Below are positions 3,986 through 58,964 of a DNA stretch of 64,000 nucleotides, piece by piece. Each line of letters starts with the position of its first letter. Positions within the stretch are counted from its first letter, which is position 1. The stretch is from Squalus acanthias. Taxonomy: Eukaryota. Made by a program: the position numbers and the translations under genes. Where the stretch lies: contig CM059431.1 in NCBI GenBank assembly GCA_030390025.1, positions 107,820,001-107,884,000 of the forward strand, in the 5' to 3' direction. The notes below the pieces were generated by a model, which saw only the letters and a program-made list of their open reading frames with translations, did not search any database and was not told the origin of the DNA.

Positions 3986-4129
3986 GGACTCTACCTTTGC
4001 TTAACAAGATTAGGATTTTAACAAGCATTTCCTCATGACAAGGTGAGATTTTGTCAGTCAACAAAAAAATCCAAGTGAGATAGAGAGTGCAACTGTGAGG
4101 CGGGTGGTTTTTGCATATCACAGAGAAGT

Positions 4130-11628: not shown

Positions 11629-11884
11629 GGGAGAATTCAAAAGCAGCGGGAGCAGAGTGAGAGCGCCAAAATCCGGGAGAGTTCAAAAGCAGCGGGAGCA
11701 GAGCGAGAGCGCCAAAACCCGGGAGAGTTCAAAAGCAGCGGGAGCAGAGCGAGAGCGCCAAAACCCAGGAGAGTTCAAAAGCAGCGGGAACAGAGCGAGA
11801 GTGCCAAAACCCAGGAGAGTTCAAAAGCAGCGGGAGCAGAGCGAGAGCGCCAAAACCCAGGGAGAGTTCAAAAGCAGCGGGAGA
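11629..11884 (+). repeat. 46-bp tandem repeat (about 5.5 copies) at the 5' end of the full-length CR1
   Basis: GTTCAAAAGCAGCGGGA recurs at 11681, 11727, 11773, 11819 and 11866. Confidence 0.95.
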
Positions 11885-24015: not shown

Positions 24016-24812
24016 GAATTTTTAAAAAGTAAAAGGAAGGTTTTCAGTAAGGGTGAGCTGGCAGTGGAAACACTATGGGTAGCTTTAAGGAACAGCAAAG
24101 GATGCAGGATTCTAGTACGAGTTGTCTACAGACCTCCTGATGTGGTTGGAGGATGTTTAGATACGAAGATCAGGCAAGCATGTAGGAAAGACAACGTGGT
24201 TATAATGGGAGATGTTCATTTTCACATAGACTGGGAGAAGCAGAACAGCTCAAGTAGTAAAGGTAGTGAATTTCTAGAATGTATTCATAGCAGTTTTCTA
24301 GAACAATGGGCTAAAAATTTGTGTCTTCTGCGCCACACGTTAGTGCCACGAGATGGCGCTAAAACACCGGCTGGCGCTCTACCGGCAGCTGGTGGTGGTT
24401 CCAGTGGCGGGCGCCATTTTTGTGTTGCTGGTATCGATGCCGGTAAACTCCATCGCCGGGGACATTTAAATCACGGAGATCATGATGTCAGTGAGTGTGC
24501 AACGCTCACTTGATGCCTGATCTCCTAATTTGGTATTGGCCATTGCAGTTACTGGCTGGAGAAAGCAACAACAGGTTAAGCTGGTGTGCAGCAGCAGGAA
24601 GCCGGCTCCAGCGACAATATTTAAAGGGATCCTCACCAATTACTCGCACTCGACAGGGTTTTGCAGTTTGAGTGGCTGGATGCTACTTCTTGCTACTGGA
24701 AGAGTTTTCTTTAGTTATTTCAAGGTTCTTTGGTATCAGGGAGTGTTCTGGCAAGTACAAAACTCTCTCATTATTTTTGAAACGCTTCAAAGTACAACAC
24801 TTGCTAAAAGTC

Positions 24813-25240
24813 ATGGGGCTGTACTGGCAGTCGACCTCACTCTCCAGGATTTACGGCGGAGGGAGCGAAGGCAGCGAGAATCACGGGAACATGTGTGCAG
24901 AGGGAGGAGGAGGGCCACCAGGGCTCTCAACGAGAGGCCTTACCCACCTAGGGTCTTCCGACAGCACTTCTCCTACCTCCAATTAAGTGAAGAGCAGTGT
25001 ATGAGGAGGCTCCGCTTCACCAAGGAGGTGGTCACAGAACTCTGCCACCTCCTGCGACCAGTCCTCCAGCCTCAGACCAGGGCGACTACAGCTCTCCCAG
25101 TGGCAGTCAAGGTCATCGTGGCTCTCAATTACTTTGCCAGCAGATCCTTCCAGTCTGCAGCAGGAGACATAGCTAACATCTCTCAGTTCACCATCCATCG
25201 CTGCATCTGGGAGGTCACTAAGGCTCTCCACACCAGGAGA
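24813..25240 (+). pseudogene. Harbinger transposase N-terminal fragment
   Basis: RPYPPRVFRQHFSYLQLSEEQCMRRLRFTKE..VALNYFA; frameshift just after the ATG; truncated before the DDE core. Confidence 0.9.
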
Positions 25241-25242
25241 TT

Positions 25243-26005
25243 GGCCCAGAAATTAAACATCGATGGTTCCCGCGGGGGTAAGGATTCCTCGCGATATCGC
25301 ACTCCGCGCCTACCTTTTTGTTTCGGGCCCACACGAACTTCAGTTTCAGGGCCTCTCCCTGTTGCCAGCGTGCAGTGCTTGCGTGTCCCAGAGGCGCAAT
25401 TAGTTTGTGCGAGCTCTGGGATCACGTGATTAAGTTAGAGCCAATGGCAGCACACCATCTTTCATTCATAGTTTTGACAGCAAAGGCTGTCAAAGCTATG
25501 AATACTACAAGCCCCCAAAAGAACAGCTAAACCTCAATTAAATTTAAAAAAAGCCATCACATTAATAAAATAACTATAGTTAAATAAATTAACCACTTTA
25601 AACAAAAAATTAAATTTTTGAAAAAGTTTAAAATCTTTTTAAAAGTTATAAAAATAAACTTACCTTTCTTTAAAGTCTCTAAAAAAGATAAACCTGTTGA
25701 AAAAAATTTAAAATAACACTTAATTAACTACTTACCTTGTTAAAAGTGGGTCCTACGCCTGCTTTCTTTATGTGTAAAATCTTCACCACTTACCTGCGCG
25801 TTCAAACCTGAAAAAAAAACTAAGTGCACTGCGTGCGCGCAGCCTGTAGCACGCACGCGGTTCACTTAGGAACCGCCCCCTTTGCAATACACGATGTGCC
25901 GGTTTCCCGCGCATGTGCAGTGCATGCAGGAAACCGGCAATTCGGGAACTAATACGTGAGAGTACACAGTGCGTACTCTCGCGTATTAGGTCTAATTTTC
26001 GGGCC
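25243..26005. mobile_element. Harbinger MITE with AT-rich core
   Basis: TIRs GGCCCAGAAATT / AATTTTCGGGCC, ATT on both flanks; same family as 60034-60776. Confidence 0.85.
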
Positions 26006-26007
26006 AT

Positions 26008-26810
26008 TATCTGAAAGCAGAAAGGCACAAGAGTCGGGTTATGGCGAGGGCCGGGTCAGGGTGGGGGGGGGGGGGGGGGGGCGAGAGAGAAATGCATGCA
26101 TATAGCCTGAGTAGCTTGAAAGTGAGAAAAGATTGTGGGCTGAGGGGGAAGTAGCGAGTGAGAAGAAGATTAGGAATGAACATACCGTTGTTGTCCCCAA
26201 GGGGGGCAACGTCACCGGTGACCACGGCGACGACAATGCGGCGCCCAATTATACCAGCTCTCGATTTTCTAGCTGGCTCAGCTCTTCAATGTCGGCCTGG
26301 CCCCCGCCCGTCCGTTCCTGCTCCCGGCGATTCTGTGCCAGTTTGGCCTGCAAGAGAAGTGTTGAGTGAGTTCAGTGCAATGTGACTGGGTGATGTGCCT
26401 GCCATAGTTGAATAGCTGTCATTGTGTGCAAGGTGTGAAATATGGGTGTGAGTGTGGATAGGTAGAGATTGTTGGTAGGTGAGTGCTGGGGGTGTGGTGC
26501 ACTGAGCAGTGTGTGAAGCTTGTGGTACAGATGGTGGTATGTGGCATTTGCTGAAGCCGTCATTCACCCTGACCACCCATGCGAGTTTGTTAAACTACTT
26601 CCTGCACTGGGTGTGGATCCTGGGGACCACAGTGCTGCCTGTGACATAGAGTGCCATCTCCCTCCACATAGTCCGGGATATTTGTGGCGAGGGCCTCCTG
26701 CCAGTTTGCGGGTATAGGACTACCCGCCTCCTCTCCACCGCGAACACCAATGCCTCAAGAGCTTCATCTTAGAACCTACGGGCTCTCTCCCTCCGTCTCC
26801 GGTCTGCCAT
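26008..26810 (-). pseudogene. Harbinger Myb/SANT gene relic (exons 1-2)
   Basis: MADRRRRERARRF*DEALEALVFAVERRR..QCRK; exon 2 AKLAQNRREQERTGGG. Confidence 0.8.
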
Positions 26811-27312
26811 GGCTGCAATTGATCTCTTCTTAATGTCGGTTGCTTTGCTGTTAGGGCAGCTGCAGATCTAACAAATCTGACAATGATGTGCTGCAGCATC
26901 AATTATCCTCCCCTTTAAGTAAGGGAAAAAGCCTGTGGCAATCATGAGTTGCAATTAGACTGCCCCCGATACTGATCCAGCTGTTCAGTGTCACGGCAAT
27001 GAGCTTGAGTTTTAAGACTAAAATCATGAGTAAAATCATGTTAATGAGGAGCGAGCATGAATTTTGCGTGCTACCTAGACCATCTCCAGGTGGCGCAGCT
27101 TAAACATTTCTTGGCTATAACAAATTTCTGGAATTGACAAGAAAACAATCAATTCTAGATTTAGAGATGAGAAACAAACTGGAACAGTCACCATAATATG
27201 ATTGACCCATTCGGCTTAAGCTCCATTTGAGCTTCCTCCCACTTACTTAATCGCACCCTATCTGTGGGGAGTCCAAAATTGGAGGCCATAAATATAAGAT
27301 AGTCACTAATAA

Positions 27313-27639: not shown

Positions 27640-27897
27640 AATCCAATAAGGAATTCAGGAGAAACTTCTTTACCCAGAGAGTGGTGAGAATGTGGAACTC
27701 GCCACTAGATGGAGAAGTTGAGGCGAATAGTATAGATGCATTTAAGGGGAAGCTAGCTAAGCACATGCAGGAGAAAGGAATAGAAGGATATGCAGATAGT
27801 GTTAGAGTAAGTAGGGTGGGAGGAAAGTTGTGCGGAGCACGAACACCAGCATAGACCAGTTGGGCTGAATGGCCTGTTTCTGTGCTGTAAATTCTAT

Positions 27898-28609
27898 GGA
27901 CCTGAGTTTGTGGTCGGAGGCTTCCCGCGGGCGGATGCCTCTGAATCGCAATAAATTTAAGCACCTACCCCACGGAGACTCGCGCTCCTGGGCCTCTCTG
28001 CATAGACATGCGTAATGGCCCACATATCCCAGAGGCGCAGGCGGTTCACAAGTGTTCCTGGGATCACGTGAGCCGGCCCAATCAATGAGAAAGGGGGATT
28101 CCCATTATGCCGTTTACGTACGGAATTCCCATAAGCATGAATAGGAATCACATAAAAAGCACATTTTTACAGCACTGAAATAAAAAATTGCTTAAAATTA
28201 ATTAAAATACAATTTAATTAAACATTTAAAACAAAAAATTAAATTTTTGAAAATAAATTTAAACATTTTTCAAGGGGCCAAAAATAACACCAACTTATTT
28301 TACAGGTTTTTGAATGTTAGAATGATTTAAAAAATTTATTTTAATATTTATTTTCATCCTTACGCTGCCAAACGAAGGCCTTCCGACTGCTTTTACCAGG
28401 CGTAAAAGAGTTTCATGGGCATTCACTGGGCAAATAGCCCAACTCTCCACCCACGAATGTCCATTCCCTGCGCACGCGGAGGATCTGTCAAACCTGACAG
28501 ACCGCAAGTTCCAGGTTTTCGCGCCTGCGCAGCCCATGTGTAATCCTGGAACTTGCGAGGCACTTACGGCCGCCACGTACGTGGTAATAGGCCAGGGAAA
28601 ATCCAGACC
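27898..28609. mobile_element. Harbinger MITE with AT-rich core
   Basis: Degenerate TIRs GGACCTGAGTTT / AAATCCAGACC, TAT on both flanks; similar to 34020-34776 and 63518 onward. Confidence 0.75.
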
Positions 28610-29996
28610 TATGTAATGATGCCCTGAGACCAAGGTAAGAAATGGGTCCTGGATTTCCAGTGAGCAATGCTACATGAGACCTACGATCACATCAAGCATT
28701 TTTGCTTTTAGACAATAGAACAAGCTGAAATAAATATTTCAGTCACTCTATTAAATGCTGATTTTACTTCTGTTGCCATATTCAGCCACAAGATGACAGC
28801 AGTGCTCCTGCATTACCCGCCTATCACCAACCGGAGCCACAAATAAATTGAGCCGAGGCAAATAACAAGGCTTTATTTTGCGTGCGGTGGTGAGTTTGTT
28901 GCCCCATTAGCACCAGGGCGTAAGTAGCTGCTATTCACCTACTATGCGCTCACAGACTTAACTTTTCTGTGGACTATCCTGTGTAAAAGGGGCAGGTCAA
29001 AAGTATCTTACATCAGCTCCCAATTTTCCCTGGTTCTGTAGCACAGTTCTAGACCACATTGAATCACCAAAACCACGTTAAAATCCCGATATTCCGAGGC
29101 CCCACTTATCACGCCGAATCTTACAACTTGTGGGCGAGGTTCTGCTCACAGCGTATTGCTTGGTCATTTATATTCCGCAAATGGCCGGGTCAATTTTCCT
29201 CCCCTCCTCTCCCCACCCCAAGTGCAATTTGTCTGGCCTACAGTTCCTGGTGGTAACCATTTTGATGGGCCACCGTACCCTGGCGCCGGTCTGCTCTTTA
29301 ACTTGGCTTTGCACCTGGAAATAGGAGGTGAAAGTCAACTGTTGCTACAGGCCTGAGACCTGCAGCAGGAGTAATAGCTAACTATTTTGGGAGGTGCTTC
29401 TGGTTGCTGTCCATAAAACGCTGCCAGAAGGTCTCTAGCCCTGATTGTCTTCCTACTGGACTTGGAAGGAAAAAAAGGTACTTAGGGGTAAAAATTCAGT
29501 TGGTTGCACCTCCCGTTAGCGCCTTAAATGGGCGCTAATGGGGCGTTAAGGCGCTAACGCCCGGGCGCAGCGCTGTTTGCGCCGCTCGAGAACTTAACTT
29601 GAGATTGTGCGGCGGCGCTAAAACTTACCGCTGCGACCACCTGCGCGCGCAGATTGTGACGTCAGTCCGTGGTGCAACGCCCTTGGGGCGCCCCGGAGCG
29701 GAAATTGAGTGGCGCCCCCTGCCTTACCGCCTGGCGCTTCCAACGACCGGAAGACTGGAACGTTATCAATCGGTCTGGGGCTGGGGGGGGCGCTATTTAA
29801 AGGGGGCCTCTTCCTGTCTTTTTCTGTGGTCGACATTTATGCACCACTCGTTCTGAGAGAGAGAGAGAGATTCGGAGAGAGAGAGAGAGAGACTTCTACA
29901 TTGACTCAACGCTTTGTGAGGTAGTTTTGCCTAGTTCATCCTAACTTTGCTGCTACTTTCGTTGCTGTACCTCATTACTTTTCTGGCAAAGAGAAG

Positions 29997-31157
29997 ATGG
30001 GGGCTGCAATGATTGGGGGCGTCGTCCTGCTCCAGCTCAATCGGAGCAGAGTGAGACGCAGACAGAGAGTGGCAATGATGGCCAGACGGAGGAGGCCCAT
30101 CAGGCGCATGTACAGGAGAGCTTACCCTCCCAGGGTATATCGTGAACAGCTCTCCTACATCCACATGTCCGAGGAGCTGTGTTTGCGAAGGCTGCGATTC
30201 AGCAAGGAGGTGGTCACTGAGCTCTGCCACCTGCTGCAGCCAGATCTGCAGCCTCAGCTGAGGTCCAGGACGTCTCTGTCGGTGGCAGTGAAGGTCACAG
30301 TGGCCTTGAACTTCTACGCCACTGGCTCATTCCAAGCTGCTGTTGGGGACCTCGCCAATATCTCCCAGTTTGCGGTGCATCGCTGCATCCGGCAGGTCAC
30401 CAATGCCCTCTTCACAAGGAGACGAGACTTCATCTCCTTGCCTATGACCCCAGACAAGCAGCATGACCGTGCTATGGGCTTTGCGAGGGTAGCGGGCTTC
30501 CCCATGGTGCAGGGCGCCATTGACTGCACGCATGTGGCTTTGCGTGCTCCGCGAGAGAATGCAGAGGAGTTCCGGAACAGAAAGGGGTTCCATTCCTTGA
30601 ATGTGCAGTTGGTCTGTGACCACAGACAGGTGATTCTCGCTGTCAATGCCCACTATCCGGGCAGCTGCCACGATGCTTTCATCCTGCGCCAGAGTACTGT
30701 GGCAGAAATTTTCGAGGCACCGCATCAGCCAGTCGGTTGGCTTCTGGGGGACAAGGGGTACGCATTGAGCACCTGGCTGATGACACCGCTCCGTGCGCCA
30801 AACACCCCTGCTGAGCTGCGGTACCAGGAAAGCCAACAAGCAACGAGGAACATTATTGAGCGCACAATCGGCGTGCTCAAACAACGATTCCGCTGTCTGG
30901 ACCATTCCGGAGGAGCCCTGCAGTACTCGCCTGAGCAAGTTTCCAAATTCGTAGTGGTGTGCTGCATGTTGCACAACATGGCAATCCTCAGGACGCAGCC
31001 AATGCCACCAGGCCTTGCAGCACCACAAGAGGAGGAGGAGGAAGAGGAGGAACAGGCCGAGGACGATGATCAGCAGCAGCACCAAGGCAGGAGGGCGGCC
31101 CACAATGGTCAAACTGCAATGGCCGTCCGTCAACGACTAATAGCAAGCCGCTTCTAG
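29997..31157 (+). CDS. Harbinger (HARBI1-like) DDE transposase, intact, 386 aa
   Basis: HTH region ALNFYATGSFQ..ISQFAV; GAIDCTH, NRKGFHSLNVQLVCD, YPGSCHD, LLGDKGY, IERTIGVLKQRF, CCMLHN; acidic tail; no stops. Confidence 0.96.
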   Translation: MGAAMIGGVVLLQLNRSRVRRRQRVAMMARRRRPIRRMYRRAYPPRVYREQLSYIHMSEELCLRRLRFSKEVVTELCHLLQPDLQPQLRSRTSLSVAVKVTVALNFYATGSFQAAVGDLANISQFAVHRCIRQVTNALFTRRRDFISLPMTPDKQHDRAMGFARVAGFPMVQGAIDCTHVALRAPRENAEEFRNRKGFHSLNVQLVCDHRQVILAVNAHYPGSCHDAFILRQSTVAEIFEAPHQPVGWLLGDKGYALSTWLMTPLRAPNTPAELRYQESQQATRNIIERTIGVLKQRFRCLDHSGGALQYSPEQVSKFVVVCCMLHNMAILRTQPMPPGLAAPQEEEEEEEEQAEDDDQQQHQGRRAAHNGQTAMAVRQRLIASRF

Positions 31158-31451
31158 GGCCCCTGCCAGTGCTACAAACACGAATCAACCCAGCACGCAA
31201 CCCCTAAGCCGGCCAAGGCACCAATAATTCCAACCACCAGCCATGTATATTTTGAATACAGAAACTTATTTATTGTACAAACTCTGTGTGTGTCAATTCC
31301 TCATGACAAACTCATAGAAATAAACACAAAAAAACAGTCAATAACATAACTGGTTCTCACAACCTGGAGATAATGTCCAAAACACTAAACAAAAGTTGGG
31401 CCATGAACCTCGGCCTTTAATAAAAAAATGACCAGCATTTTGGCACACCTC

Positions 31452-32518
31452 CTACTTTTTGCCCTTCGAGGGTGATCTCCTTCCCTTGCGCACTTCCCCC
31501 CTTCTAACCCTACTGCTCCTCCGTAATGGGACCTCAGTGGCTGCAGCAAGGCTGGTGGAAGGCTGCTGCTTGTCAGACCCTGACACTGCAGATGCCCCTG
31601 AAGGACGGCCTCGACCACTTCTGGGCCTGGAGGGCCCGGCTGCAGACTGCACCAACTCTGCATGGGCGGCAGCAGTCTGTCCTACAGGCGGTGGCAAGTG
31701 CAGTGGAGAAGTGACAGTGTTGGCAGCAGGAATGCTGTCATCGTGAGAGAGGACAGCAACTCCCTGCTCGCCCGACACACTGGCACTCCCACGGGGCAGC
31801 ACTTCAGCATCCGGAGCAATTTGCCTGAGAACAGATTGCTGGCCTGCTGCGGCGCGGTGACAGCCCCGGGGACATGTGCACGAACCATCGAGGATGGCAG
31901 CAGTCAGTGCTCGCGTGGCCTCAATCTGAGTCTGCATGAGAGCAGGCTCAGATGGGTTCCTGGCAGCCAGTGACTGAATTGCAGCAGTAAGCTTTAGTGT
32001 GGCATCCGCCTGTGCTACAGCGAAGTGCTCCACACTCCTTGCCAGTGCCTCAATGCATTCGGGCACCCTTCCCACTGCACCCATGAGCTCAGTGTGCATG
32101 ACCACCGCCTGGCTGTTCATTTCTGCAATCATCCGCTCCTCCTCTGCGTCCATTGCATTAGGAGTGTCTGGCATACTCTCCCTCTGGGGAGAAGGCTCCC
32201 GTTCTTCCCTCCCCCCCCCATGGCGTTGCTGCAGCCCGCTGGGTCCTGGAACTTCACCATCATCAGCCCCTTCCCCCCTGCTCCCCCGTTCTTCCCTCCC
32301 CCCCCCATGGCGTTGCTGCAGCCCGCTGGGTCCTGGAACTTCACCATCATCAGCCCCTTCCCCCCTGCTCCCCTCCGGGGAAGGCGTGTTCCCAGTGTGG
32401 CCATGGGCTTCCTCGGGAGAGGGTGGCACTGATGCTCCGGCTTCCTCTTCCTCCTCAGCTGCAGCATCACTCCCAGTGGCAGCTTCAGGGACCATCTCCT
32501 CAGCTGGTGAATCACCAT
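31452..32518 (-). CDS. Harbinger Myb/SANT partner gene, exon 3
   Basis: Acceptor CCCTGCTTTCAG at 32520-32519; phase-1 join reads into ORF 31452-32495; basic C-terminus; 87-bp in-frame duplication. Confidence 0.82.
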
Positions 32519-32677
32519 CTGAAAGCAGGGAGGTACAAGAGTGGCTTTAGCGTGAGGACAGGGTGGCAGTAAGGGAGGAATAAGTGCAGCGAGTTAGCAA
32601 GTTGGATTGAAAGTGTCAAAGGCTGGTATTGTGAGGGACAAGTGGAAGGACAGAGGACAAAAAGGTGATGACCTTAC

Positions 32678-32840
32678 CATTGCTGTCCACAACGGGGTCG
32701 GCGTCTCCAGTGGCGACGGGACCGATCACCCGGCTTGCCACAATCCTGTGGACGCGCTCCTCCAGATCGCTGAGGGGTTGCAGCTGAAGCCGCCCTCCAC
32801 CCGTCCATTGCTGCTGTCTCCGATTATGAGCCAGCTTAGC
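32678..32840 (-). CDS. Harbinger Myb/SANT partner gene, exon 2 (163 nt)
   Basis: TTTTTCTTGCAG acceptor, GTAAG donor; AKLAHNRRQQQWTGGG..LSDLEERV; same length as the homologous exon at 40600-40762. Confidence 0.85.
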
Positions 32841-32868
32841 CTGCAAGAAAAAGGACAGCATCTGAGTC

Positions 32869-33192
32869 AATATACAGCCATGGTCTTGCCTGATGTGCCT
32901 CCCATAGGTGAATAGCCCTTACAATATGCAGCCATGGTCTTGCCTGATGTGCCTCCCATAGGTGAATAGCCCTTACAATATGCAGCCATGGTCTTGCCTG
33001 ATGTGCCTCCCATAGGTGAATAGCCCTTACAATATGCAGCCATGGTCTTGCCTGATGTGCCTCCCATAGGTGAATAGCCCTTACAATATGCAGCCATGGT
33101 CTTGCCTGATGTGCCTCCCATAGGTGAATAGCCCTTACAATATGCAGCCATGGTCTTGCCTGATGTGCCTCCCATAGGTGAATAGCCCTTAC
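32869..33192. repeat. 54-bp minisatellite, 6 copies, in Myb intron 1
   Basis: AATATGCAGCCATGGTCTTGCCTGATGTGCCTCCCATAGGTGAATAGCCCTTAC repeated almost perfectly. Confidence 0.97.
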
Positions 33193-33340
33193 TGTATGCA
33201 AAGTGTGGAATGTGTGTGTGTGTTTGATGAAAGGGCCATAGGTGTTGGATGAGTGTTGTGCATTGGGGTTTTAAGACCCTCTGGCCATAGAGTGAGGTTG
33301 AGATGGAGGGATGGAGAGGTATTGAGAAAAAGCCACTCAC

Positions 33341-33545
33341 CCTGACGACCCGAGTGAGGTCGTTGAACTTTTTGCGGCACTGGACATGGGTCCTGGGCAC
33401 CATGCTCCTGGAGGAGACGCTCTGAGCCACCTCCCTCCACACTCTTCTGAACTCGCGTGGCAAAGGCCTCCTGCCACTCTCTGGGAACAGCATGCATCGT
33501 CTGCGCTCCACTGCGTCAACCAGAGCATCCAAGGCCCGCTCGGCA
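33341..33545 (-). CDS. Harbinger Myb/SANT partner gene, exon 1 (start codon apparently missing)
   Basis: ALDALVDAVERRR..LF..WREVAQSVS..RTHVQCRKKFNDL trihelix pattern; donor GTGAGT at 33340, phase 0. Confidence 0.8.
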
Positions 33546-34019
33546 GCAAAATGGATTACAGGTCTCTCCAGGCTGAGATTCAAGGCTGCAATGAGCAGGG
33601 TGTGGCTGGGGAGCAAGTGGCCCCCCCCGCTTTAAGAAGTGTCCGGCGCCAGTGTGTCTGTGTTACCGCGCTAACTGGCAGCAGCTGCGCTGCGCTCGTG
33701 CGCTGAGTTAGCGCCTCACTCCTAGGCCTTTGTGCCTTAAGAGAGGTGTGCAGCGCCTAATTTAGCGCTCCACTCACCTCCCGGGGCGGTAAAAGTGAAG
33801 TTTCCTGTCAGTGCCGATAATTAGCGCCAGGCGCTAATATTTGCGCGCGGACGATATTTGCGCCCCAAATGGGGCGCGACCTAATTTCTACCCCTTAACT
33901 TTTTGGACCTTCCACGTGTTATGTCCAAATAAGCACTCGTGGGCTTTTACTTCCAGAAATTCTTGTCAAAGAATAACAAAAACAATACAAGGTACACCTT
34001 GGAGTGAAAATGCTATAAT

Positions 34020-34776
34020 GGTCCGTAATTTCTGATAGGAGGCTTCCTGCGTGCGGAGGCCTCCTATCGGGAAAAAATCTACGCCCTTACCTGAGGGCTC
34101 CCGAGGTCTGGCCATTTCCGATCCTGGGCCTCTCCACAGTCGAAATGCGCAGGGCCCACGTATCCCAGGGGCGCAGGCGGTTCGCAAGCGCCCCTGGGAT
34201 CACGTGGGCCAGGCAAGCCAATGGGAGAAGGGAATCTCCCTTCATGCTTTTGACAGATAGACCCGTCAATAGTATGAATAGGGATCACTGAAAAAAGACA
34301 CTACAACATTAAATAATTTTTTTTTTAAATCACGTTTTTAAAATGAGTCAAAATTACATTAAATTAAATATTTTAAACAAAAACTTAATTTTTTGAAAAA
34401 AATAATTAAAGTTTTTTACGGGGCTAAAAATAAACTTACCTTTTTTAAAGGTATTTTTAAATTATAAATGAGTGAAAAAATATATATTTACTTTTTTAAA
34501 CTCTTATGCTGGTAAAAGCAGGCCTTACGCAGGCTTTTACCAGGCGTAAGATTTCTAAGGGTTTTCTGCGGGCGGAGGTTCTGCAGAAAGCGGAACTCTC
34601 CACCCGCAGAGGCCCTTCTCCAGGGCAGGCGTCCGATCTGTCAAGAGGATTCTTGACAGATCGGAAGTGCCGGTTTTCAGCGCATGCGCTTTGCATGCCT
34701 GAAACCGGCACTTGCGAGGTCCCTACGGGTGGGTACACAGCTCGTACCCACCCGTAGGAATCGGAAAATACGGGCC
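34020..34776. mobile_element. Harbinger MITE with AT-rich core
   Basis: TIRs GGTCCGTAATTT / AAAATACGGGCC; arms near-identical to 47050-47418. Confidence 0.85.
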
Positions 34777-36749: not shown

Positions 36750-38017
36750 GCTAAGAGAAATGAAAGGATAAATGTTCATCTTCACTGCCTGATTGGTAAT
36801 CTGGTGGAGTAGATCATTTGCCCATTATGGAACACCCGGCCCGTACCCGACTTATATTCCATTGAAATCAAAGGAATGATAATCAGGTGAGGTCTATAAT
36901 GGGTGGGAGATCTGCTCCACCAAATTACCAACCAGGGGATGAAGAAAAACATTTTGCCCAGTAGTATTTTCACGTTGTAAATGCAAAATGTTACATAAAC
37001 TATTAAAAAGGAATAAATAAATATTACTAGGGAACCAGGAAGACAGAGAAAAAGCTGTGGAATTCCCTCCATAAGCCTCTGCCTCTCTCTCCTTCATTAA
37101 GACGCTTCTTCAAACCTACCTCTTTGACCAAGCTTGTGGACACCTGTTCTCATATCTCTGTGTGTGGCTTGGTGTCAAATTTTGTTTGATAACGCTCCTG
37201 TGAAACACCTTGGAACATTTTACTATGTTAAAGGCACAAGTTGTTGTTGTTGATGCTGACACATGTCTTACTTAGGTTCCTTTTTCTGTCACCATATGTT
37301 GATTATCTTTTTCTAATTGACCTGTTGTTGGGTATGATATTGTCCCCATTACTACTGGGGACCAGCATTTTAGAACCTCTAACCTATATAACTAAATCTA
37401 CATGGATCACAGTTCCTAGCGGGAAAAATTTGGTACTTTAGCGCCTCCCGTCGGGGCGCGAGAGCATTATTGCCGGGGCAAGGCGAATCCAACGCCGCAC
37501 GCCAAATCCCACACCCTAGAATAGAATCATAGAAAGTTACAGCACGGAAGGAGGCCATTTCGACCCATCGTCTCCACGCCGGCCGACAAAGAGCTATCCA
37601 GCCTAATCCCACTTCCCAGCTCTTGGCTCGTACACCCTGCAGTGCCGCCACTAACAGTTATCGCCGGGAGCCTCAACGCCAGGTGGATCATGACGTCAGT
37701 TACTGTGCAACGCTCACTGGCCACCCAATCTGCAAAATTGATTATCGCCACCTACCTTAGCGCCTGGAGTAAACGGCGACAGGGAGAGCTGATGTGAAGC
37801 AGCAGGAAGCTGGCTCCAGGGTTGTTATTTAAAGGGATCATCAGTAATGAGTCACAGCTGTAGGTTAGTGGAGTTTTGTGCTTTCTTGTCAGATTCACAT
37901 AGTGCAACAGTCTCATTCCGTAATTACAACGTTATTTTATATGCGGAGTGTTGTGGCAACTAAAAAGTAGCTACATTTATTCTTCAAAAAATCAATCTGC
38001 TACATTTGGTTACATTA

Positions 38018-39077
38018 ATGGACACTGTACTGGCAGTCGACCTGGCCCTCCAGGATCTACAGCGGAGGGAGCAGAGGCAGCGAGAAAGATGGGAACATGT
38101 GGTCAGAGGGAGGAGGAGGGCCATCAGGGTGGCCTTACCCTCTGAGGGTATTCTGAGAGCACTTCTTTTATTTCCAATTGAGCGAGGAGCAGTGTATTAG
38201 AAGGCTCTGCTTCACCAAGGAGGTGGTCACAGAACTCTGCCACCTCCTGCAACTAGACCTCCAGCCTCAGACCAGGGCGACGACGGCTCTCTCAGTGGGA
38301 GTCAAGGTCACCGTTGTCCTCAATTTCTTCACCAGCAGATCCTTCCAGTCTGCAACAGGAGACATATCTAACATCTCACAGTTTGCCATCCATCGCTGCA
38401 TCTGGGAGGTTACAGAGGCTCTCGACAGTAGGAGAAGGGATTATATTTCCTTCCCCATCACCAGAGAGAAGCAGGACGAGCGTGCATGTGGCTTTGCCAG
38501 GATAGCGGAATTCTCCATGGTGCAGGGCGCCATTGACTGCACCCATGTGGCTTTACGGGCACTGCATAACAATCCTGAGATCTTCCATAACCGCAAAGGC
38601 TACCACTCACTTAATGTGCAGTTGGTGTGTGACCGCAGACAGCAAATCCTTAATGTCAATACCCGCTATCCTGGCAGCAGCCATGATGCCTTCATCCTGT
38701 GCCAGACCGGTGTGTCAGCAATCTTCCAGCCACCATGTCAAGCTCGCGGCTGGCTGCTCGGAGACAAGGGCTATACGCTCTCCACCTGGCTCATGACTCC
38801 CCTCCGCAACCCCAACACTCCTGCCCAGCACTCATATAATGACAGCAATGCTGCCACCAGGAACATCATCGAGCAGACCATCAGCCTGCTGAAGCAACAG
38901 TTCTGCTGCCTTGACTGCTCGGGAGGAGCCGTCCATAGCTCGGCTGAGCGGGTGTCCCATTTTGTTATGGTCTGCTGCATGCTCCACAACTTGACCATCT
39001 TGAGGGCCCAACCTTTTCCACCAGGGATTGCGGGACCACCTCAGGAGGAGGACGAGGAAGAGGAGGAACAGGAGTAA
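38018..39077 (+). pseudogene. Harbinger transposase pseudogene
   Basis: MDTVLAVDL start, frameshifting deletion near 38130, then GAIDCTH, GDKGY, IEQTI; early stop in the acidic tail. Confidence 0.92.
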
Positions 39078-39317
39078 GGGAGGAGGCAGCCACTGAATCG
39101 GCCTTCCGGAAGGGCAGTCCATGACCACCTCATCAGACTGCGGTGTCAATGAATTAAACCCCAGATTCCCGTTGCTCACCACATCCCCATTATTCCATCC
39201 CTGTCGCAGGCCATATCACAGCGGAAAGTTGAAATGAGACACACCACAAAAGAGTCCAAACTGAATTAATAAATTTATCAAATATCAGTGAACACATATT
39301 TACAACAAAAATATTAA

Positions 39318-41233
39318 CTATTCACCCTTGTGCAATCCCTTAGTGCCCCTTGTTACAGTGGCTTTGCCTACTCTAGTGCTCCTACGAAGTGTTGGCCCAA
39401 GTGGCTGCAGCAGGGCTGGTGAAAGGCTGCTGAGTGTCCATGCGGGAGACTTCAGATGGCCTTGCAGGACACCCTCGACCAGCTCTGGGCCTGGAAGGCC
39501 CGGCTGTAGACTGCACCACCTCAGCATGGGCGGCAGCAGTCTGGGCTGGCTGGATGACAGGCAGTGACAAGGGCAATGGCGGAGTGGCAGTGGTGGGAGC
39601 AGGAATGCTGTCATCCTGAGAGAGGACACCAGGTTCCTGCTCCACTGACCCACTGCCACTCCCCCGGGGCAGCATCTCAGCATCCCTAGCAATCTGTTGG
39701 AGCACAGATTGCTGGCCTACTGCGACACTGTGAAAGCCTCGGTCGATGGTGGTAGACCCAGCCATGATGGCAGCAGTCAGAACTTGTGCAGCATCAAGTT
39801 GAGGCTGCATGAGAGTAGTCCGAGATTGTATACCATCAAGCATAGGCTGTATTACATCACTAAGATGTTGCGTCGCTTCCGCCTGTACTGCAGTGGAGAC
39901 TGCCAGATCTTTCATCACATGCGGCATCAGGTCTGGGTTGCCACGGTCTCTCTGGGAGTCTACCATCCTGTGCAGACTGCTAATGATGGGCTACATCGTG
40001 TGCACAGAGCCTTGTGCAATGTTGGAGTTGAACTCTTCCACGCTCCTTATCATTGCCGAGTGGCTCTCGGTCACCCTTGCCATTGCACCTATCATCTCCG
40101 TGTGCATGCCCATCACCCTTCTTCTAAAGGCCTCCCCATCGAGTTCCTCATCTGAGTCCTGTGCAGCAGAGCTCGCACACGAACTCGCCCTCCGGGGTGC
40201 TGACTCCCGAGCTACCCTTTCCCCCTGGTCTTGCTGCAGCCCCCTCATCCCCAGTGCATCACGCTGTGCAGTTCCTGCTACTGTACTAGCTACTAGCCTC
40301 TAAAGAACGCGTAGTGCCAGTATCTGAGCTGGTTCCTGCGGGTGAGACATGCAGTGACGCGATGCGTTCTTCGTTCTCCTCTTCTTCCGCCTCGCTCTCT
40401 ATGGTACCTTCAGGGAAAGGCTGCTCAGCTGCTTGCTCATTATCTGAAAGCATAAAGGCACAAGAGTCGGGTTAAGGTGAGGGGAGAGGGACAGGAAGGG
40501 AGAAATGTATGCATACCGCATGATTAGCTAGAAAGTACGAAACGCTTGTGGGGTGAGCGGGAAGTGGGATGTGAGAAGAAAGAGTAGGGATGAACATACC
40601 GCTGTTGTCCCCAAGGGGGTCAATGTCGCCAGTGGCCACAGCGCTCAGCACCTGGCGCCCAATAATCTCCAGCACTCGATTTTCCAGCGCAGACAGCGGT
40701 TGGGTTTCGACTTGTCCCCCACCTGTGCGCTCCTGCTCCCTCCTGTTGTGAGCCACCTTAGCCTACAAGAGAAAGGAAAGTTTATAAGTGAGTGTGGAGC
40801 AATGTGTTTGGGTGATGTGCCTGCCATAGTTGAATAGCTGTCATTGTGTGCAAGATGTGAGATGTGGGGTGTGAGTGTTGGTTGGTAGAGATTGTTGGTG
40901 GGTGAGTGCTGGGGGTGTGGTGCTTTGGGCTATGTGTGAAGACTATGGTTCAGATGGTGGCATGTAGCATTTGTTGAAGCATTCACTCACCCTGAACATC
41001 TGAGTAAGATCGTTAAATTTCTTCCTGCACGGTGTGTGGGTCCTGGGGACCACAGTGCTGCCCGAGACATGCTGTACTACCTCCCTCCACGTGCTGTGGA
41101 AGCCTTGCGGCGAGGGCCTCCTGCCACTTGCCGGGTGGAACATTGCCCTCCGTCTCTCCACAGCGAATACCAATGTCTCCAATGCTTGATCGCGGAATCT
41201 GTGGGCTCTCTCCCTGGGGCATGGATCTGCCAT
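39318..41233 (-). pseudogene. Harbinger Myb/SANT gene (exons 41233-40991, 40762-40600, 40443-~39318), exon 3 disrupted
   Basis: MADPCPRERAHRFRDQALETLV..WREV..CRKKFNDL; canonical GT-AG sites at positions homologous to the 29485 copy. Confidence 0.85.
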
Positions 41234-41569
41234 GAGTACAGCTGCTTCAGTCCTTCTGCTCCTTCTCCTTGACTTGCTGCTGCTTGCTGAGGCTGCTGCA
41301 CAGTCAGCAATGCTGAGAATGAGGTTCTGCAGCATCAATGAACTTCCCCTTTAAGAACTGAATAAAGCCTGTGGCAATCATGACTTGCAATTAGACTTCA
41401 CCTGATATTGGTCCACCCTTTGAGTGAAATGCCAATGAGCTTGGGTTTAAAGACTTGAATTAGCGCGCCAATAATTTCTTTGAGCAGTGAGCACGAATTT
41501 TGCGTGCAGTCTAAAGCATTTGTGCTTGGCGCTAATTCTACAACTTTTCTAATTTTACCTCCCTCTCCT

Positions 41570-45035: not shown

Positions 45036-45537
45036 GGGGTAGAAATTCAGTATCGCCCCGTTTGGGACGCAATTATCGGCCGGGCGCAAAGTTTAGCACC
45101 TGCCGCTAATTATCGCCTCCGACTGCAAACTTGGCTTCTATCGCCCCTGGAGGTGATTGGAGCGCTAAATCAGGCGCTACACACCTCTCTTAAGGCGCTG
45201 ACGCCGAGGAGCGAGGCGCTAACTCAGAGCGCTGGCGAAGCTCAGGTGATGTCAGTTATCAATTGAATGCAGACATACTGGCGCCGGCCAGTTCTTAAAG
45301 GGGAGGGTCGATCTTGCTCTCCAGCCACACCCTGCTCATTGGAGCCTTGAATCTCGACCTGGACAGACCTGAACTTCAAATCTGCTACAAAGAACAATGG
45401 AGAGTCCCAAGGAAAGAGCTCAGAGTGCAGCCCCCAAAGTCTCTTCCAAATCAATGCAAGGAAGGTCAAATCAAAAAGAACCTGCAAAATGCTGCTCAGT
45501 ACCCAAAACTCCTTCACACAGTGTTGAATCTCTCCAG

Positions 45538-45574
<37 letters not shown>

Positions 45575-45964
45575 AACCTCTCTTTCTCTCTCAGAATGCG
45601 TGGTGCAGAAATGTCTCCGACAAAAACAGGCAAGAAGAGGCAGCCTTTAAATAGCGCTCCCCCAGCCCCTTCCCAACTGTAAAATGTCCCCCTCTACCTG
45701 TCATTGCTAGCGGCAGGCGGAAAGGAAGGGGGCGCCACTCAATATCTGGTCTGGGGCACTACCAGGGCGTTGCACGCTCGACTGACATCACGATCTGCGG
45801 GCGCAGGAGATCGTGGTGGTAGTGTTTAGCGCCGCCGCAAAAAACTCTGGGCAATTTCGCGAGCGGCGCAAACATCGCCGTGCCCAGGCGCTAGTTGCTT
45901 TGCGCCCCGTTAGCACCCTCTTAGGGCGCAAACGGGAGGCGCTAATCAATTGAATTTTTCCCCC
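45036..45964 (-). mobile_element. Internal-deletion derivative (MITE) related to the 29485 Harbinger
   Basis: TIRs GGGGTAGAAATT / AATTTTTCCCCC; arms align with both ends of 29485-33894 in reverse, including the (GA)n tract. Confidence 0.9.
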
Positions 45965-47049
45965 TAAAAGCCTAGCATTTAAATGTGATGCCTTTGCACC
46001 TTTGACTGGGACCAAACTTTCCTTGTAAAGTTAAGAATTTTGCAACAGGATAGGCATCAGTTCAGGCCTGGTCTTTGCAGGCACAGAAGGAGCAATTACT
46101 GAACAACCTGAAGCCACAAACAGGACACTGCTATAAATAATATAAATAATGTGAAGCCGTTATTTGAAATGGCAGCTTCAGGACAACGGATTATTATCCA
46201 GGTGCCTCACGACTGAAAACATTTTTTTTTTAAACCCAGAAAGGTGTAATAAGATTTAATTTTCCATCTCTATGGTAACATACATAATGAAACTACGTAA
46301 TTAAGATTAAAAATACCTATGAGCAGATTGTGGTAATCAAGTGAGACAAAATTCAAGGGTAGCGCTAAAAACGAAATACGATATTTGTATCATACAGTTT
46401 GCTACAGAGATATCAACGAATGAAACTATGCATGATTCAGATGTATTTTGTCAAGATTGAGATGAAAATGACTTATTTTCTATTTGAATATGGGCAAATC
46501 AAGGGTATGATGGATTTCTGAGGACAAGTGACTAGGTTTAAGGAAGCTCTGAGCTAGTGTGCAAAGGTTGATAGGCTGTCAGTTGAGGTTCATGAGCTAG
46601 TCTGTCACATAGTAGCTAACTGCTTCAGAGGGACCATACTTTCCTTCGTTCAATAATTTTATCAATGACACAGACAGCAGTAAAAGGGGCGAAATGCCAG
46701 TAGAAAACATGCGTGGACTGTCCATGTTCCAGCCCTGCTCACAGGTTTTGTACCCCTCTAATAATTAATAAATGATTACGAGTTAAAGTGCGAGAAAACA
46801 CCTGATTCTTTTACTTGTTAAGACATTTTCAAAAGTCATTAATGATGAACTTGTTGAGCATTTTCACAGTCCAATCAAAAGTGAATATATTACTACAGCT
46901 CGGATCCGGCATTAAAGAACTTAATGAACAAGAAACTTTTAGAGCATTGCAACATCTATAATAGAAGTGAATAATGCACTGGAGCATTTTTTTTTAAAAG
47001 GGTATGGGGAAAAGGCAGGGGAATGGGACTAAGTGAATAGAATTACAAT

Positions 47050-47418
47050 GGCCTGTAATTTCCGATAGGAGGTTTCCTGCATGCAGATGCCTCCTATTGG
47101 AAAAAAATCTACGCCCTTACCTGAGGGCTCCTGAGGTCCGGACACTTCCGCTCCTGGGCCTCTCCACAGTCGAAATGCGCAGGGCCCACGTATCCCAGGG
47201 GCGCAGGCGGTTCGCAAACGTCCTGCAGAAAGCGGAACTATCTGCCTGCAGAGGCCCTTCTCCAGGGCAGGCGTCCGATCTGTCAAGAGGATTCTTGACA
47301 GATCGTAAATGCCGGTTTTCAGCGCATGCGCTTCGCATGCATGAAACCAGCATTTCCGATGCCCCTACGGGTGTGTACACAGCCCGTACACACCCGTTTG
47401 TATCGGAAAATATGGGCC
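47050..47418. mobile_element. Harbinger MITE lacking the AT-rich core
   Basis: TIRs GGCCTGTAATTT / AAAATATGGGCC; equals 34020-34190 joined to 34580-34776. Confidence 0.85.
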
Positions 47419-47769: not shown

Positions 47770-49200
47770 CGTCCAAATGGTCAGGACCAGCGGCGTAAAG
47801 TCATATGGCAAAGTGTCCACTTTCCAGGGAGCGGGAATGATTAATACCGGCTGGTTTACTTGAAGAAAAAGGACACAATTGAAGGGTGGCTTCTGGAAGG
47901 TGAAGGCTACCGTATGCAGTCTTGGCTGTCCGTCAGAAAGTGAGCACAAATACAATGGAGCCCATGCAGTCACCAGGGTTATTCACAGATCTATTGGCAT
48001 CTTGAAGCAGGGTGTCCAAAATAAATTTTTATCCGCAGTATGCTCCACAATTTTGCTATCCAAGGAGGCCTAACCATGGAGAATTGGGACGAGGAGAAAG
48101 CCTATCTGCAGCTAAGACTAGAGGATGACACTGACTATAATCCACAGGATGTTGCTTTAGAAAAACCTTTTTAGCCAGAGGAATAGTACGCCAGGCTGTC
48201 ATAGAGGAATCACTTAGCTAAGTGTTTGAGCTGCCTATTTCAATCAGACTTTTATCTATATGTGCACTATGCAGTGGCTCAGCATTGTCCTCTACGCCAT
48301 CTAACTACACTGGAAGCCCTTATTGTGATTTTCTGATATCTGAGCAGAAAAGTTTGTGAAGCCCTGCATAATGCCTGCCTTGCTCTGATCTTCCAGCATG
48401 CTAACGCCATATGAGAATGCCTACTATACATTTAGAGTTCAAGGCCTTCATACTTGCAACATGAGCTTTCATGAGAGATACTCCAACTCTATGAACTAAC
48501 CACCATCACTGTGGTCTTCACTCCAGATGTCCCTGGATTTGTCATGTTTTCCACGGTGAAAGTCACTCCAATAAGCCATGATACGCCTCACAGTCGCTGC
48601 TAGATCTCGCGAGGTGCTCTGAAAAGTCTCAAAATGACTTCATAAGATGACCGTGCTCAGCTAGCAACCTTCGTTTATAAGCAGGTCCCGTGAGGTTTGA
48701 ATCCCTGGGCTTCGCAGCTGAGGAAGGACATGAGTTGGTCTTCCGACCTGCAGGTTCCTGGTCTGTCATTTGCAGCTTCTCATTCATGGTCATTGCTTTA
48801 CCTAGGTCCTCTAAATTCCCAGGGATGGATGTACTGTGCTGATGCTTGCAATAGGTGGAGTGAGTAATGCAGAGGGCTGTAAGCTGCTGGCTTCTTCTGT
48901 GGTTTTGGGAACTGAGAATGGTTCTTAAGAGAGACACCCATAGAAACAGAAGAGGAACATATATTAAAATGTTAGCCTCACGACGCCTTCAAATATTATG
49001 TACATAGCTCTATACAGTGGGCCATAGTGTTGTGCTCGACTATATGCCTGTGTGATAGTGAAAGTGAGTAAGGAAGCAGAGAACAAAGAATATAAGGATG
49101 AAGGTATAGCCCCGAGCTGGTGGAAGACCACTGAGTTCACTATGCTCCAGTCCTTCCATGCTCTTAATCTCAAGGATTTCCAAGCACTCAAGAGCTTATA
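47770..49200 (+). pseudogene. Old Harbinger relic (transposase 3' part on +, partner gene on -)
   Basis: SEHKYNGAHAVTRVIHRSIGILKQ on +; AYKRRLLAEHGHLM on - resembles AFRRRVMGMHTEM at about 40100. Confidence 0.62.
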
Positions 49201-54080: not shown

Positions 54081-55864
54081 GGGGGGAATTTTTCGGGGGT
54101 CAGCGGGAGCATTTGGTGGCGGGTTGCCTGGGATAAAAACATTTTTGACAGTGGGTAGGGAACCCGCTGTCAACCGCCTCCACGCTAGTCTCCAGATGTC
54201 GGGTCAGTCATCGCTGAACAGACCTGACACCAAGCGGCGGGGGAGGCAATTTAGATCATTAGAGGGATTGTTAAGAGGCAATTAAATCATATTTTAAGCT
54301 CACCTTTAGATTTTTAGAGTTCGCCAACTGCTTCCCCGCTGCTCGGGGATCACGTCAGGTAAGGAGGTCGGGAGTTGTGTCAGCATGTGATGGTTTCTTT
54401 ACTTGACAGCTGCAAATGGCCTATAAAAGCACCCATTTCATAGGTCTTCACTTTCCAAGGTTAGAAGCTGTTGCTTACTGCATTTGGAAGACAGAATGAG
54501 CTTTATGCAGCTTGCAAGTGTTTGGAGCAAACTTTCTATCCAGTGTCAACTCATTGGAAAAACCTCTCTCACCATTGACAGATCGCTTCTGTCATCTCAA
54601 TTTCAGCTACCATCTATTCCATCAGCATCGGTGCCCTTGAAAAAATCTCACCTTGGTGCTCAGAATCCCACCACGATCAGCCCCAACACCAGCAGCACCA
54701 GGCACACCAGCAGCACCAACAACAACACCAACATTCTCCGCAATCAACTGATTCTGCACAGGAAACAGGGCATCAGCAGCCGAGCACATTGCTGCCCGGG
54801 ACACCAGGGTTCGCCTCACCATGGCCAGATTTACTTCACTTGATGCTGTACACCCTGGCTGCCACATGATGCGCCAGTTGGCACCACCCCACACCAACAC
54901 CATAAAGCATCCCTACAATGCCCAAGCCATTCCTTTCACACTCATCGCCATTGCGGGGGGTACCGTTATGTCTCACCATTCACTGCAACTCACTAAGCCA
55001 CTTCCAAAGGTGCACACAAATCTGTCCAAGTACGCAAAGTGTTGAAAATAAAAGTTTCAATGTTTAACAGCACTGTAACAGAAACTTTACATGAACATTG
55101 GCTAAAACACCCAAGTGCCCACCCTTGTGTGTTGTTAGTTGGTATGATTGCACTAGGATGAGGGTGAGTGTGAGGGCTGGCTAGTGAGATGAGGAAGTGA
55201 TAATGTAGATAGAGAGGGATGGGTGGAGGTGCAAGGTTAGTTGGTGTGAGTAAGGATGTGCAGGAGTAGGGTAGGGACGGCAGAGTGATGGGGATGTGAT
55301 GAGTGGCACAGCAGGATGAGGTTGAGTGTGGCTTTGCAGTAACATTTTGTGATCTACTAAGATCATTGAAAGGTTTGCGCCACTGCAGCCTGGCCCTCCT
55401 GATGACATCCCTGCTTGTGTCCTCCTGTGCGATGTGCAACCAGGCTGCGTTGATCTCCTGGGGAGGTCTCATCCGCCCATGGGAAGGGAAGAGAACCTCC
55501 CTGCGTGCTGTGACTCCCTCCATAAGCACATGGAGGGAGTTATGGGAGAGCCTGGGTGCAGCCTTGCACCTCTGTGCAGTGCTTGTCAGTGTTTGCAGCA
55601 CCTCACTGCTTTAGAACACTGACAGCTCAAATGTCAAAATAAATTTGGACATGGCCCCTTTAAAGAAACCGGCTGATGATGTGTCATCAAGTAACGTCAT
55701 CAGACCCGCTTCATTCAATTGGCCGGGAAACGCGCTGGGCGGGCTTAACAAGCCCAATCAGCGTAAAATTCATTTCACAGATTGGGATAGAGCCAGCAGC
55801 ATGGTTGCACCCCGCCACCGACCCCGGCCACACCAGATCCGCCTCGGTAGGTGAAATCGCGGCC
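54081..55864 (+). mobile_element. Degenerate Harbinger derivative with Myb/SANT relic on the minus strand
   Basis: APRLS..LMEGVTARREVLFP..AWLHIAQ..QWRKPFNDL at about 55350-55560; TAT on both flanks. Confidence 0.75.
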
Positions 55865-57078
55865 TATAGCTCTTTGTTTAGCACCAGCAGCTTCACTTGT
55901 GCTTCAGCAAAGTATCTCGTTAATATCCTTCCCCTGCTGTGGTGGGCACCCCAGTTGTATCAAAAAGGGATTGGGCTCCTGCCCAAAGTATGACAATGAT
56001 CTTGACACAAGAATTTGTACAGGGTCAGGGATGTATCCATGGGGTAGGTGAAAAGTCCACTCCGCCCCAATCTGCTCCCAGTGCGTTGCCCCCTGGAATC
56101 TCCAGGTTAAGAGCCCTCATCTCTGCTAGCCTGAATTTCCTTTGTTCTTTCCTATATTGTACTGTTTAAGCAATATAACCTACTTGAGCTTTTCATTACC
56201 TTTGTCTAGATCTAACTGTCTCCTTTAGAAGTGAGAGCAACATTAACACATTGATGTTAGATTGGCTGACGATCAGCTCCATAAAAACAGTTTTTTTTTA
56301 GCCAAACAAGGCACAGAAAAGATTAAACACAGTCATGTCGTACATTATTAGCTCCAGTTGTTTGGGCCACTTAGGTCATCTTATTTCACTGGGAGCACTC
56401 TTGCTTTTGAGTCATAGGTTCAAGTCCTATGCTAGATGTTGATGCAGTCCTGAGGGAATTCTGCGTCGTTACAATCTTTTGGATCAGATGTTAAGCTGAG
56501 GCCCCATTTGTCTGTTCCATTGTGTTTGGAGATGTTTCTGACAGTTGTGATGGAGCACCATGTAACTAGTCTCTCTCTAGATAATGGGGGAGAAATTCGG
56601 TTGGTTAGCGCCTCCCGTTAGTGCCTGGCGGGGGCGCTAATGGGGAACTAATGAAGCAGCGCCGGGGTGAGGCAAATCCAGTGGTGCACGCCAAATCCAG
56701 TCGCCCCTTAGCGCCGCCACTAACAGTTAGCACCTGAGGCTTTAGCGCCAGGCAGATCATGATGTCAGTGAGCGTGCAACGCTCACTCAGCGCCCGATCT
56801 GCCAAATTGATTATCGCCCCCTGCCTTAGCGCCTCGCCCCGACAACAACAGGGGGAGGAGGCGTGAAGCAGGCGGATGACAACTCCAGGGGCAATATTTA
56901 AAGGGATCAGTCGCAGTGTCAGGTTAGTGCCGTTTCACTGCTTCCTTGTCAGTTTGCGATTGTGCAAGAGTTTAATGCAGTCATTTAAAGGTTCTTTAGT
57001 AACAGGAGTGTTGTGGCTACTAAAAATGTGTTACAATTATTCTGACAAAATTTCAAAGTGCTACACATCGTTACATTA

Positions 57079-58255: not shown

Positions 58256-58475
58256 CATAGAAACATAGAAACATAGAATCTAGGAGCAGGAGTAGGCCAT
58301 TCGGCCCATCGAGCCTGCTCCGCCATTCAATACGATCATGGCTGATCATCCAAATCCAGTACCCTGTCCCTGCTTTAATCCCCACAGTACACATATCCCA
58401 CCCTACCCCCGTAACCCCACGTATTTAATTCCCCCTAACATATCCCATCCTATCCCCATAACCCCACATATTTAA
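58255..58475 (-). mobile_element. Truncated HE1-like SINE piece with CR1 tail
   Basis: 58390-58440 matches 27517-27567 in reverse; the tail is of the GGCGGAGCAGGCTCGA..(TTTCTATG)n type. Confidence 0.7.
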
Positions 58476-58964
58476 CTGCGGTTCCAATAAATTAAACCCC
58501 AGATCCCCATTGTTCACCACATCCCTATCATTCCATCCCTGTCGCAGGCCATATCACAGTGCAAAGCTTAAATGAGAGACACCACAAAATCTTCCAAAGC
58601 CAATTAATAAATTTATCAATAATCAGTGAACACATATTTACAACAACAATATTAGCTGTTTAGACTTGTGCAATCCTTTAGTGCCCCTCCTTACAGTGCC
58701 TTTGCCTACTCTAGTGCTCCTACGAGGCGTTGGCCCAGTGGCTACAGCATGACGGGTGGAAGGCTGATGAATGTCCATGCGGGAGGCTTCAGATGGCCTT
58801 GCAGGACGCCCTCGACCAGCTCTGGGCCTGGAAGGCCCAGCTGTAGACTGCACCACCTCAGCATGGGCGACAGCAGTCTGGGCTGGCTGGATGACAGGCA
58901 TTGACAAGGGCAATGGCGGAGTGGCAGTGGTGGGAGCAGGAATGCTGTCATCCTGAGAGAGGAG

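Follow-up and report, generated by a model that had tools for sequence, protein, structure and literature searches.

Does the genome of the shark Squalus acanthias hold a two-gene Harbinger transposon that could still move by its own means? The question is raised by a window of 64,000 nucleotides (the whole stretch of DNA analysed here: positions 107,820,001 to 107,884,000 of the forward strand of contig CM059431.1, assembly GCA_030390025.1), in which a PIF/Harbinger-type DNA transposon carries a transposase gene and, convergent to it, a gene for a Myb-like helper protein (Table 1). The original prediction called this copy complete and near-active, with an intact transposase and a fully spliceable Myb partner. 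According to PMC2836001, the Myb-like protein of Harbinger systems binds both the element ends and the transposase and is needed for the nuclear location of the latter, while the transposase carries out cutting and insertion, the latter duplicating 3 bp, excision being usually precise; in human cells Harbinger3N_DR required both proteins to move, and mPing was no longer excised when the Myb fold carried a mutation. The requirement for two proteins, which the prediction also invoked, agrees with this source. We consider it highly probable that the locus holds a full-length PIF/Harbinger copy with an open transposase frame and a Myb gene deprived of its start codon and first 11 residues, and that this copy is likely non-autonomous; since both proteins are needed, neither "complete" nor "near-active" describes it.

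Termini and coding capacity of the element

The element or part of it is present in 20 of 24 listed runs that carry six coded organism labels; four of these runs (X2, X6, X17 and X19) were aligned in detail. The terminal inverted repeats (TIRs) begin GGG and agree at 11 of 12 positions over 12 bp and at 13 of 16 over 16. The duplicated TTA lies between C and A, a reading of a single site that does not settle the preference of the family. One X2 contig (record 17; 1131 bp, depth 10.7) joins 29201-29480 directly to 33894-34012; as C stands at both 29481 and 33894, the contig represents the insertion site with a single TTA and no element, and it confirms the ends (29485 and 33894) and the duplication that had been predicted. 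This one contig fits a site that never received the element and a precisely excised one alike, and the two cannot be told apart. X2 differs from the window at 2 positions and by 1 gap in about 400 flanking bases, and may derive from another individual or a close species. The 8-mer GGCGCTAA, repeated across both ends, is a candidate binding site for the Myb helper.

The helper gene has lost its beginning. Contigs of X17 and X19 carry an identical 34 extra letters after 33543, the reverse complement of which opens with ATG and encodes, by hand translation, 11 codons in frame with the exon-1 remnant; adjoining leader letters appear as a loose end at 33557 in 40 X2, 2 X17 and 4 X19 contigs. The long form thus counts 57 letters against 13 in the window, a loss of 43-44 bp. 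In an alignment of four copies, the ATG and a basic stretch are present in the derivative at 45 kb and in the copies at 26.7 and 41.2 kb, and the element has a gap. Matches to homologues start at query residues 27-36 in 39 of 43 cases, around the breakpoint, which lies in codon 30; ten homologues, hand-picked for short N-termini, all start with methionine 9-13 residues earlier, and in each a basic stretch follows that has RF, or something close to it, as its last residues. The deleted stretch includes this basic R..RF motif, which opens the domain. From the in-frame stop at 33632-33634 to the donor, the minus strand holds five ATGs: those at 33528, 33497 and 33387 are out of frame, and those at 33493 and 33403 are in frame and lie within the Myb domain, with no in-frame ATG between the stop and 33493. 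A scanning ribosome would meet 33528 and 33497 before 33493, and no working helper is therefore predicted. What remains of the domain matches PF13873 with 29.4 bits (cut-off 21.7) over positions 11-73 of the 78 in the profile. The 67-residue remnant of exon 1 gave no matches in a word-index search, whereas the full HMMER search gave 43 homologues. Four of the Myb-like homologues (P0121, P0122, P0134 and P0141) contain from 2 to 10 tandem copies of the domain; they are perhaps neighbouring copies fused in gene models, or else true multi-domain proteins.

The prediction listed no start for exon 1, there being none to list, and its "fully spliceable" partner is not confirmed; the rest of the predicted structure holds: the three exons join in frame, in phases 0 and 1 and at GT-AG sites, and identical splice sites occur in diverged copies near 26.0-26.8 kb and 40.4-41.2 kb. 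A joint from 32518 to 32678, which skips 159 bases with CT..AC ends, is found in X17 and X19, whereas X2 and X6 lack it. The RNA check proposed for the junctions thus comes out for intron 2 in 2 of 2 RNA-like runs and 0 of 2 others, where X17 and X19 are not recorded as RNA and are counted as RNA-like since only these show the GT-AG joint. Intron 2 is spliced in sequence of the family, in two studies and under two organism labels. Of 29 joints 15 are listed, and the junction of intron 1 does not appear in that list; record 8 of X17 runs unspliced across its donor (33171-33543); by homology this junction is crossed in 39 of 46 alignment rows, 37 of the 39 having no gap beside it. The AATAAA signals predicted on both strands between the genes are present. 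The plus-strand signal (31319) is placed beyond the minus-strand one, so that the 3' ends of the convergent transcripts would overlap and could form double-stranded RNA. Two internal repeats that the prediction does not mention, the 87-bp duplication in exon 3 and the 54-bp array in intron 1, are absent from most family contigs and appear to mark a sub-lineage; they seem to be common to a sister copy in X6, whose contigs break there with depth raised at 32212.

The transposase matches PF13359 over the whole profile (E 5e-38) and carries D176, D226, D252 and E288, with D176, D226 and E288 as the DDE residues. We compared it with 120 homologues of 372 matches, each count covering those with a residue at the position: L148 stands where 106 of 116 have F, A236 where 86 of 113 have P, Q277 where 103 of 115 have N, and Q280 where 96 of 117 have H. 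The intact transposase of the prediction therefore survives in its open frame and DDE residues and not at these four otherwise conserved positions. A236, Q277 and Q280 also occur in the X6 sister copy, whose piece 30500-31014 differs once and silently, and so may be traits of the subfamily; L148 and M375 are private, another letter being found in all four runs compared. Over both genes five private coding changes were seen, a small number drawn from 40 of 184 difference rows listed; four change a residue (L148, M375 and two in Myb) and one is silent. Together with the start deletion, the four residue-altering changes fit neutral decay. The top transposase homologues among the matches listed (120 of 372) are all from sharks and rays and labelled "putative nuclease HARBI1", the best of them, from Pristiophorus japonicus, having 65% identity. 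Comparison with solved structures gave no match, one weak alignment (E 0.024) being a chance match of an acidic stretch. In the transposase leader, 29922-29991 resembles a short intron (donor-like GT, pyrimidine tract, and AG right before the ATG), and X6 and X17 contigs cross it unspliced.

Table 1. Positions of the element, its parts and other features in the window
Feature	Position	Strand	Remarks
Element	29485..33894		Full-length PIF/Harbinger-type DNA transposon copy, ~4.4 kb
Left target-site duplication, TTA	29482..29484		Sequence; empty-site contig with single TTA
Left TIR, 12 bp	29485..29496	+	Matches right TIR 11/12
Left subterminal region	29497..29800		With the right end, 7 copies of GGCGCTAA
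TATA-like box 5' of transposase	29794..29801	+	Motif only; kept in 45-kb derivative
Transposase ORF (open reading frame), 386 aa, DDE_Tnp_4	29997..31157	+	ATG to stop; ORF and profile match
AATAAA, Myb transcript	31269..31274	-	Motif only
AATAAA, transposase transcript	31319..31324; second at 31419	+	Motif
Myb exon 3, coding to stop	31452..32518	-	Basic low-complexity C-terminus; acceptor used in RNA-like contigs
Exact 87-bp tandem duplication	32198..32373		In exon 3; 29 codons, in frame; skipped by many family contigs
Myb intron 2, 159 bp	32519..32677	-	GT-AG, phase 1; spliced in RNA-like runs
Myb exon 2, 163 bp	32678..32840	-	Sequence and diverged copies
Myb intron 1, 500 bp	32841..33340	-	GT-AG, phase 0; splicing supported by homology
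54-bp x 6.2 tandem array	32868-33200		Inside intron 1
Myb exon 1, remaining coding part	33341..33543	-	Myb/SANT-like domain; first in-frame ATG at 33493
Deletion breakpoint, 43-44 bp lost	33543..33544	-	Start codon, 11 codons and ~9 leader bases gone
TATA-like box 5' of Myb gene	33631..33638	-	Common to four aligned copies; motif only
Right TIR	33883..33894	-	Sequence
Right target-site duplication, TTA	33895..33897		Sequence
Internal-deletion derivative, related subfamily	45036..45964	-	78-82% identical to element ends
Other Harbinger copies and remnants	24308-27100, 37420-41560, 56586-58963, 55353-55547, 47785-48010
Short TIR element family	25242-26009, 60030-60777, 34020-34776, 47044-47418		GGCCC..AATT-type ends
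Relatives of that TIR family	27896-28569, 63515-63950
12-bp x 136 tandem array	61742-63362
46-bp x 5.5 tandem array	11629-11883
807-codon open frame	1577-4000		Reverse-transcriptase match

Origin and remaining capacity of the copy

In the reading that we favour, intact copies of the family would have supplied both proteins and placed this copy into a TTA while the subfamily was mobile; neutral decay would have followed, with deletion of the helper start and at least four private amino-acid changes. As the ends are intact, the copy could still move in trans via helpers from intact family copies; it would be possible cargo, perhaps a source of transposase, and is likely not self-sufficient. Several points weigh against this reading. 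An in-frame CTG (33571-33569, with A at -3 and G at +4) could start a near-full-length Myb protein, although the basic R..RF motif would be missing from that product. It is also possible that the transposase works, in which case the copy could be a helper for that half-reaction. The deletion is read from assembled sequence and not from raw reads of the source sample, and for other copies that might share it the view extends to 32 pieces out of 40572 and to 12 between-letter rows out of 20. Finally, the Myb start of the X6 sister copy is presumed intact, 101 letters of X6 record 28 being unseen.

It is conceivable, if improbable, that copies with the deletion form a separate mobile subfamily, transposase-only and amplified in trans, so that the deletion would be older than the insertion. 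Solo-ORF Harbinger-Snek variants are multi-copy in sea kraits (PMC8437027), and deletion derivatives of the present family exist as well (at 45036-45964, and as a joint from 29933 to 33618 in X17). However, in X6, which holds the closest sister, the match ends at exactly 33543 and different letters follow, and the long form is present in X2, X17 and X19.

Quite unlikely, in our judgement, is a complete and near-active autonomous element that makes both proteins, with Myb started at CTG 33571 or at the internal ATG 33493. The frame is indeed open from 33631 to the donor and across all three exons, the CTG is in good context, and the termini and DDE residues are intact; but the basic R..RF motif with which homologous domains start would be absent from the product, and that from 33493 would also lack the first helix region and be preceded by two out-of-frame ATGs. 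The loss of mPing excision upon mutation of the Myb fold (PMC2836001) and the transposase residues L148, Q277 and Q280 speak against it too.

We regard it as very unlikely that the deletion arose in assembly and that the genome itself holds an intact copy. A high-copy repeat with internal tandem arrays is difficult to assemble, and among the few rows listed no contig crosses the breakpoint in the form seen in the window; yet the break is clean, is more than 300 bp away from the array in non-repetitive sequence, and is accompanied by other private substitutions that also resemble decay. Domesticated genes of the HARBI1/NAIF1 type occupy a fixed single-copy locus without termini. That the two genes are such a host pair, as the database name "putative nuclease HARBI1" of their relatives might suggest, is hardly credible in view of the TIRs, the duplication, the sister copy at another site, the many copies with a contig depth far above that of the flank, and the empty site, which refutes it unless its contig is a paralogous locus.

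Copies and age of the family

Six internal pieces of the X6 sister copy, 3508 bp in all, differ from the element at 11 positions (0.31%); when two terminal pieces of higher depth are included, the count is 21 in 3859 bp (0.54%), gaps being excluded. The sister copy sits in other flanks, which read TTG on both sides according to two loose ends, so that the TWA duplication is not strict in the family. At a shark mutation rate of 7e-10 per base per generation (95% interval 1.4-14.1e-10; PMC10587355), 0.31% amounts to about 2.2 million generations (1.1-11 million), and this divergence is close to the allelic diversity of 0.002 of the shark in that paper. It suggests an age that is young by shark standards and is no proof of present activity. 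Among 39075 family contigs of X2, 8932 have at least 99% identity, 13624 have 95-99% and 16519 have 90-95%, a spread that indicates a large family of mixed ages. Summed X2 contig depth is about 1e5 to 1e6 over the element against 11 over the flank; it is not a copy number, and the four to five orders of magnitude are used only as a sign of many copies.

The empty site, the near-identical copy elsewhere and the spliced helper sequence suggest that the family was mobile fairly recently. The predicted two-gene Harbinger with conserved Myb exons is thereby borne out, and is young. It is possible, though we lean towards doubting it, that the subfamily keeps autonomous members that transpose now, or did so within living shark populations, with segregating insertions. 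Taken alone, the copy is a decaying transposon of an ordinary kind, and the family-level evidence is of modest value: the same three observations point to a shark family that moved on roughly the same time scale as allelic variation. Any autonomous copies that survive would be two-component Harbingers native to a vertebrate, of which only the reconstructed zebrafish element is named as assayed in the sources cited below; intact copies of a still-active family could be cloned rather than rebuilt, and would provide a TWA-targeting two-component vertebrate tool. As a candidate for reconstruction the family holds up, through its intact-start Myb sequence, spliced intron 2, empty site and sister copy; the completeness of this copy does not.

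The internal-deletion derivative at 45036-45964 retains the Myb ATG with some 9 codons, as well as the opening codons of the transposase region. Its ends, which had been proposed as donor for an excision and integration assay, would be poor for that use given their limited identity to those of the element (Table 1) and their mismatched flanks, TTA and ATT. The X17 joint from 29933 to 33618 represents another such derivative, with breakpoints unlike those of the first. The spread of the family over runs was also considered as a sign of horizontal transfer and offers no evidence of it: the labels are coded, four runs were aligned, and sharks evolve slowly.

Known Harbinger systems and other features of the window

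PMC4482050 characterizes PIF/Harbinger elements by a TWA 3-bp duplication, TIRs, a DDE ORF, a helix-turn-helix motif and a second gene of Myb/SANT type, and calls potentially active those with both ORFs intact. The element has the TTA duplication, the TIRs, the DDE ORF and the Myb/SANT gene, the latter without its 5' end, which places the copy outside the potentially active class; a profile search with the transposase at E 0.01 reported no helix-turn-helix family. Among the groups described in the same source, NuwaII targets TNA between C and G, whereas the one site here is TTA between C and A; NuwaI duplicates CWG and not TTA, while the GGG-starting TIRs and the 4.4-kb size do fit.

Vertebrate Harbingers, one reconstructed tool and shark PIF-Harbinger repeats are already in print. 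Harbinger3_DR of zebrafish (Sinzelle et al. 2008) was reconstructed and jumps in human cells, as cited in PMC2836001 and PMC3016246, the latter listing it as a tool. It resembles, with Harbinger3N_DR, the shark element as a vertebrate system with a DDE transposase, a Myb-like helper, short TIRs, a 3-bp duplication and a family consensus usable for reconstruction. It differs in its target, a palindrome with a CWG core as against TTA here and a TTG-like site in the sister, and in having been rebuilt and shown to be mobile; the shark copy is helper-defective, and the likeness is drawn from descriptions. Harbinger-Snek of sea kraits (PMC8437027) is likewise a high-copy vertebrate family with intact, solo-ORF and short derivatives and with RNA over its coding regions; horizontal transfer is argued for it, whereas the top homologues of the shark family are all chondrichthyan. 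With Ping/Pong/mPing of rice (PMC2836001) the element shares the two-protein requirement, a TWA-type duplication and miniature inverted-repeat derivatives (MITEs) mobilised in trans, but the rice system is from a plant, naturally active and assayed, while shark activity is inferred from the empty site and low divergence.

In sharks, PIF-Harbinger is named as a repeat class in the whale shark (PMC8455134) and the grey reef shark (PMC12498223). These repeats and the elasmobranch HARBI1 models belong to the same superfamily and animal group, with a best protein identity of 65%; in the text available, the two papers give presence or rank only, with no gene structure, empty site, splicing or age, and assign recent activity to long interspersed elements (LINEs). 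"Harbinger" is absent from the main text of PMC11979771. PMC9179366 (2022) reports no Harbinger in the elephant shark, suggests a loss in cartilaginous fish and calls for other species. A search that left most subscription papers, Repbase, Dfam and supplements outside found no study of how a shark Harbinger family is built or how old it is.

The window is unusually dense in Harbinger DNA, with at least three further two-gene copies and two remnants within 64 kb. These copies belong to another subfamily (66-69% protein identity); one is truncated, one carries a stop and one is frameshifted. In the short GGCCC..AATT family, AAT flanks one side and AT plus a variable base the other in 3 of 4 pairs, so that its duplication is either of 3 bp or AT. 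One member of this family sits where Myb exon 3 begins in the 26-kb Harbinger copy.

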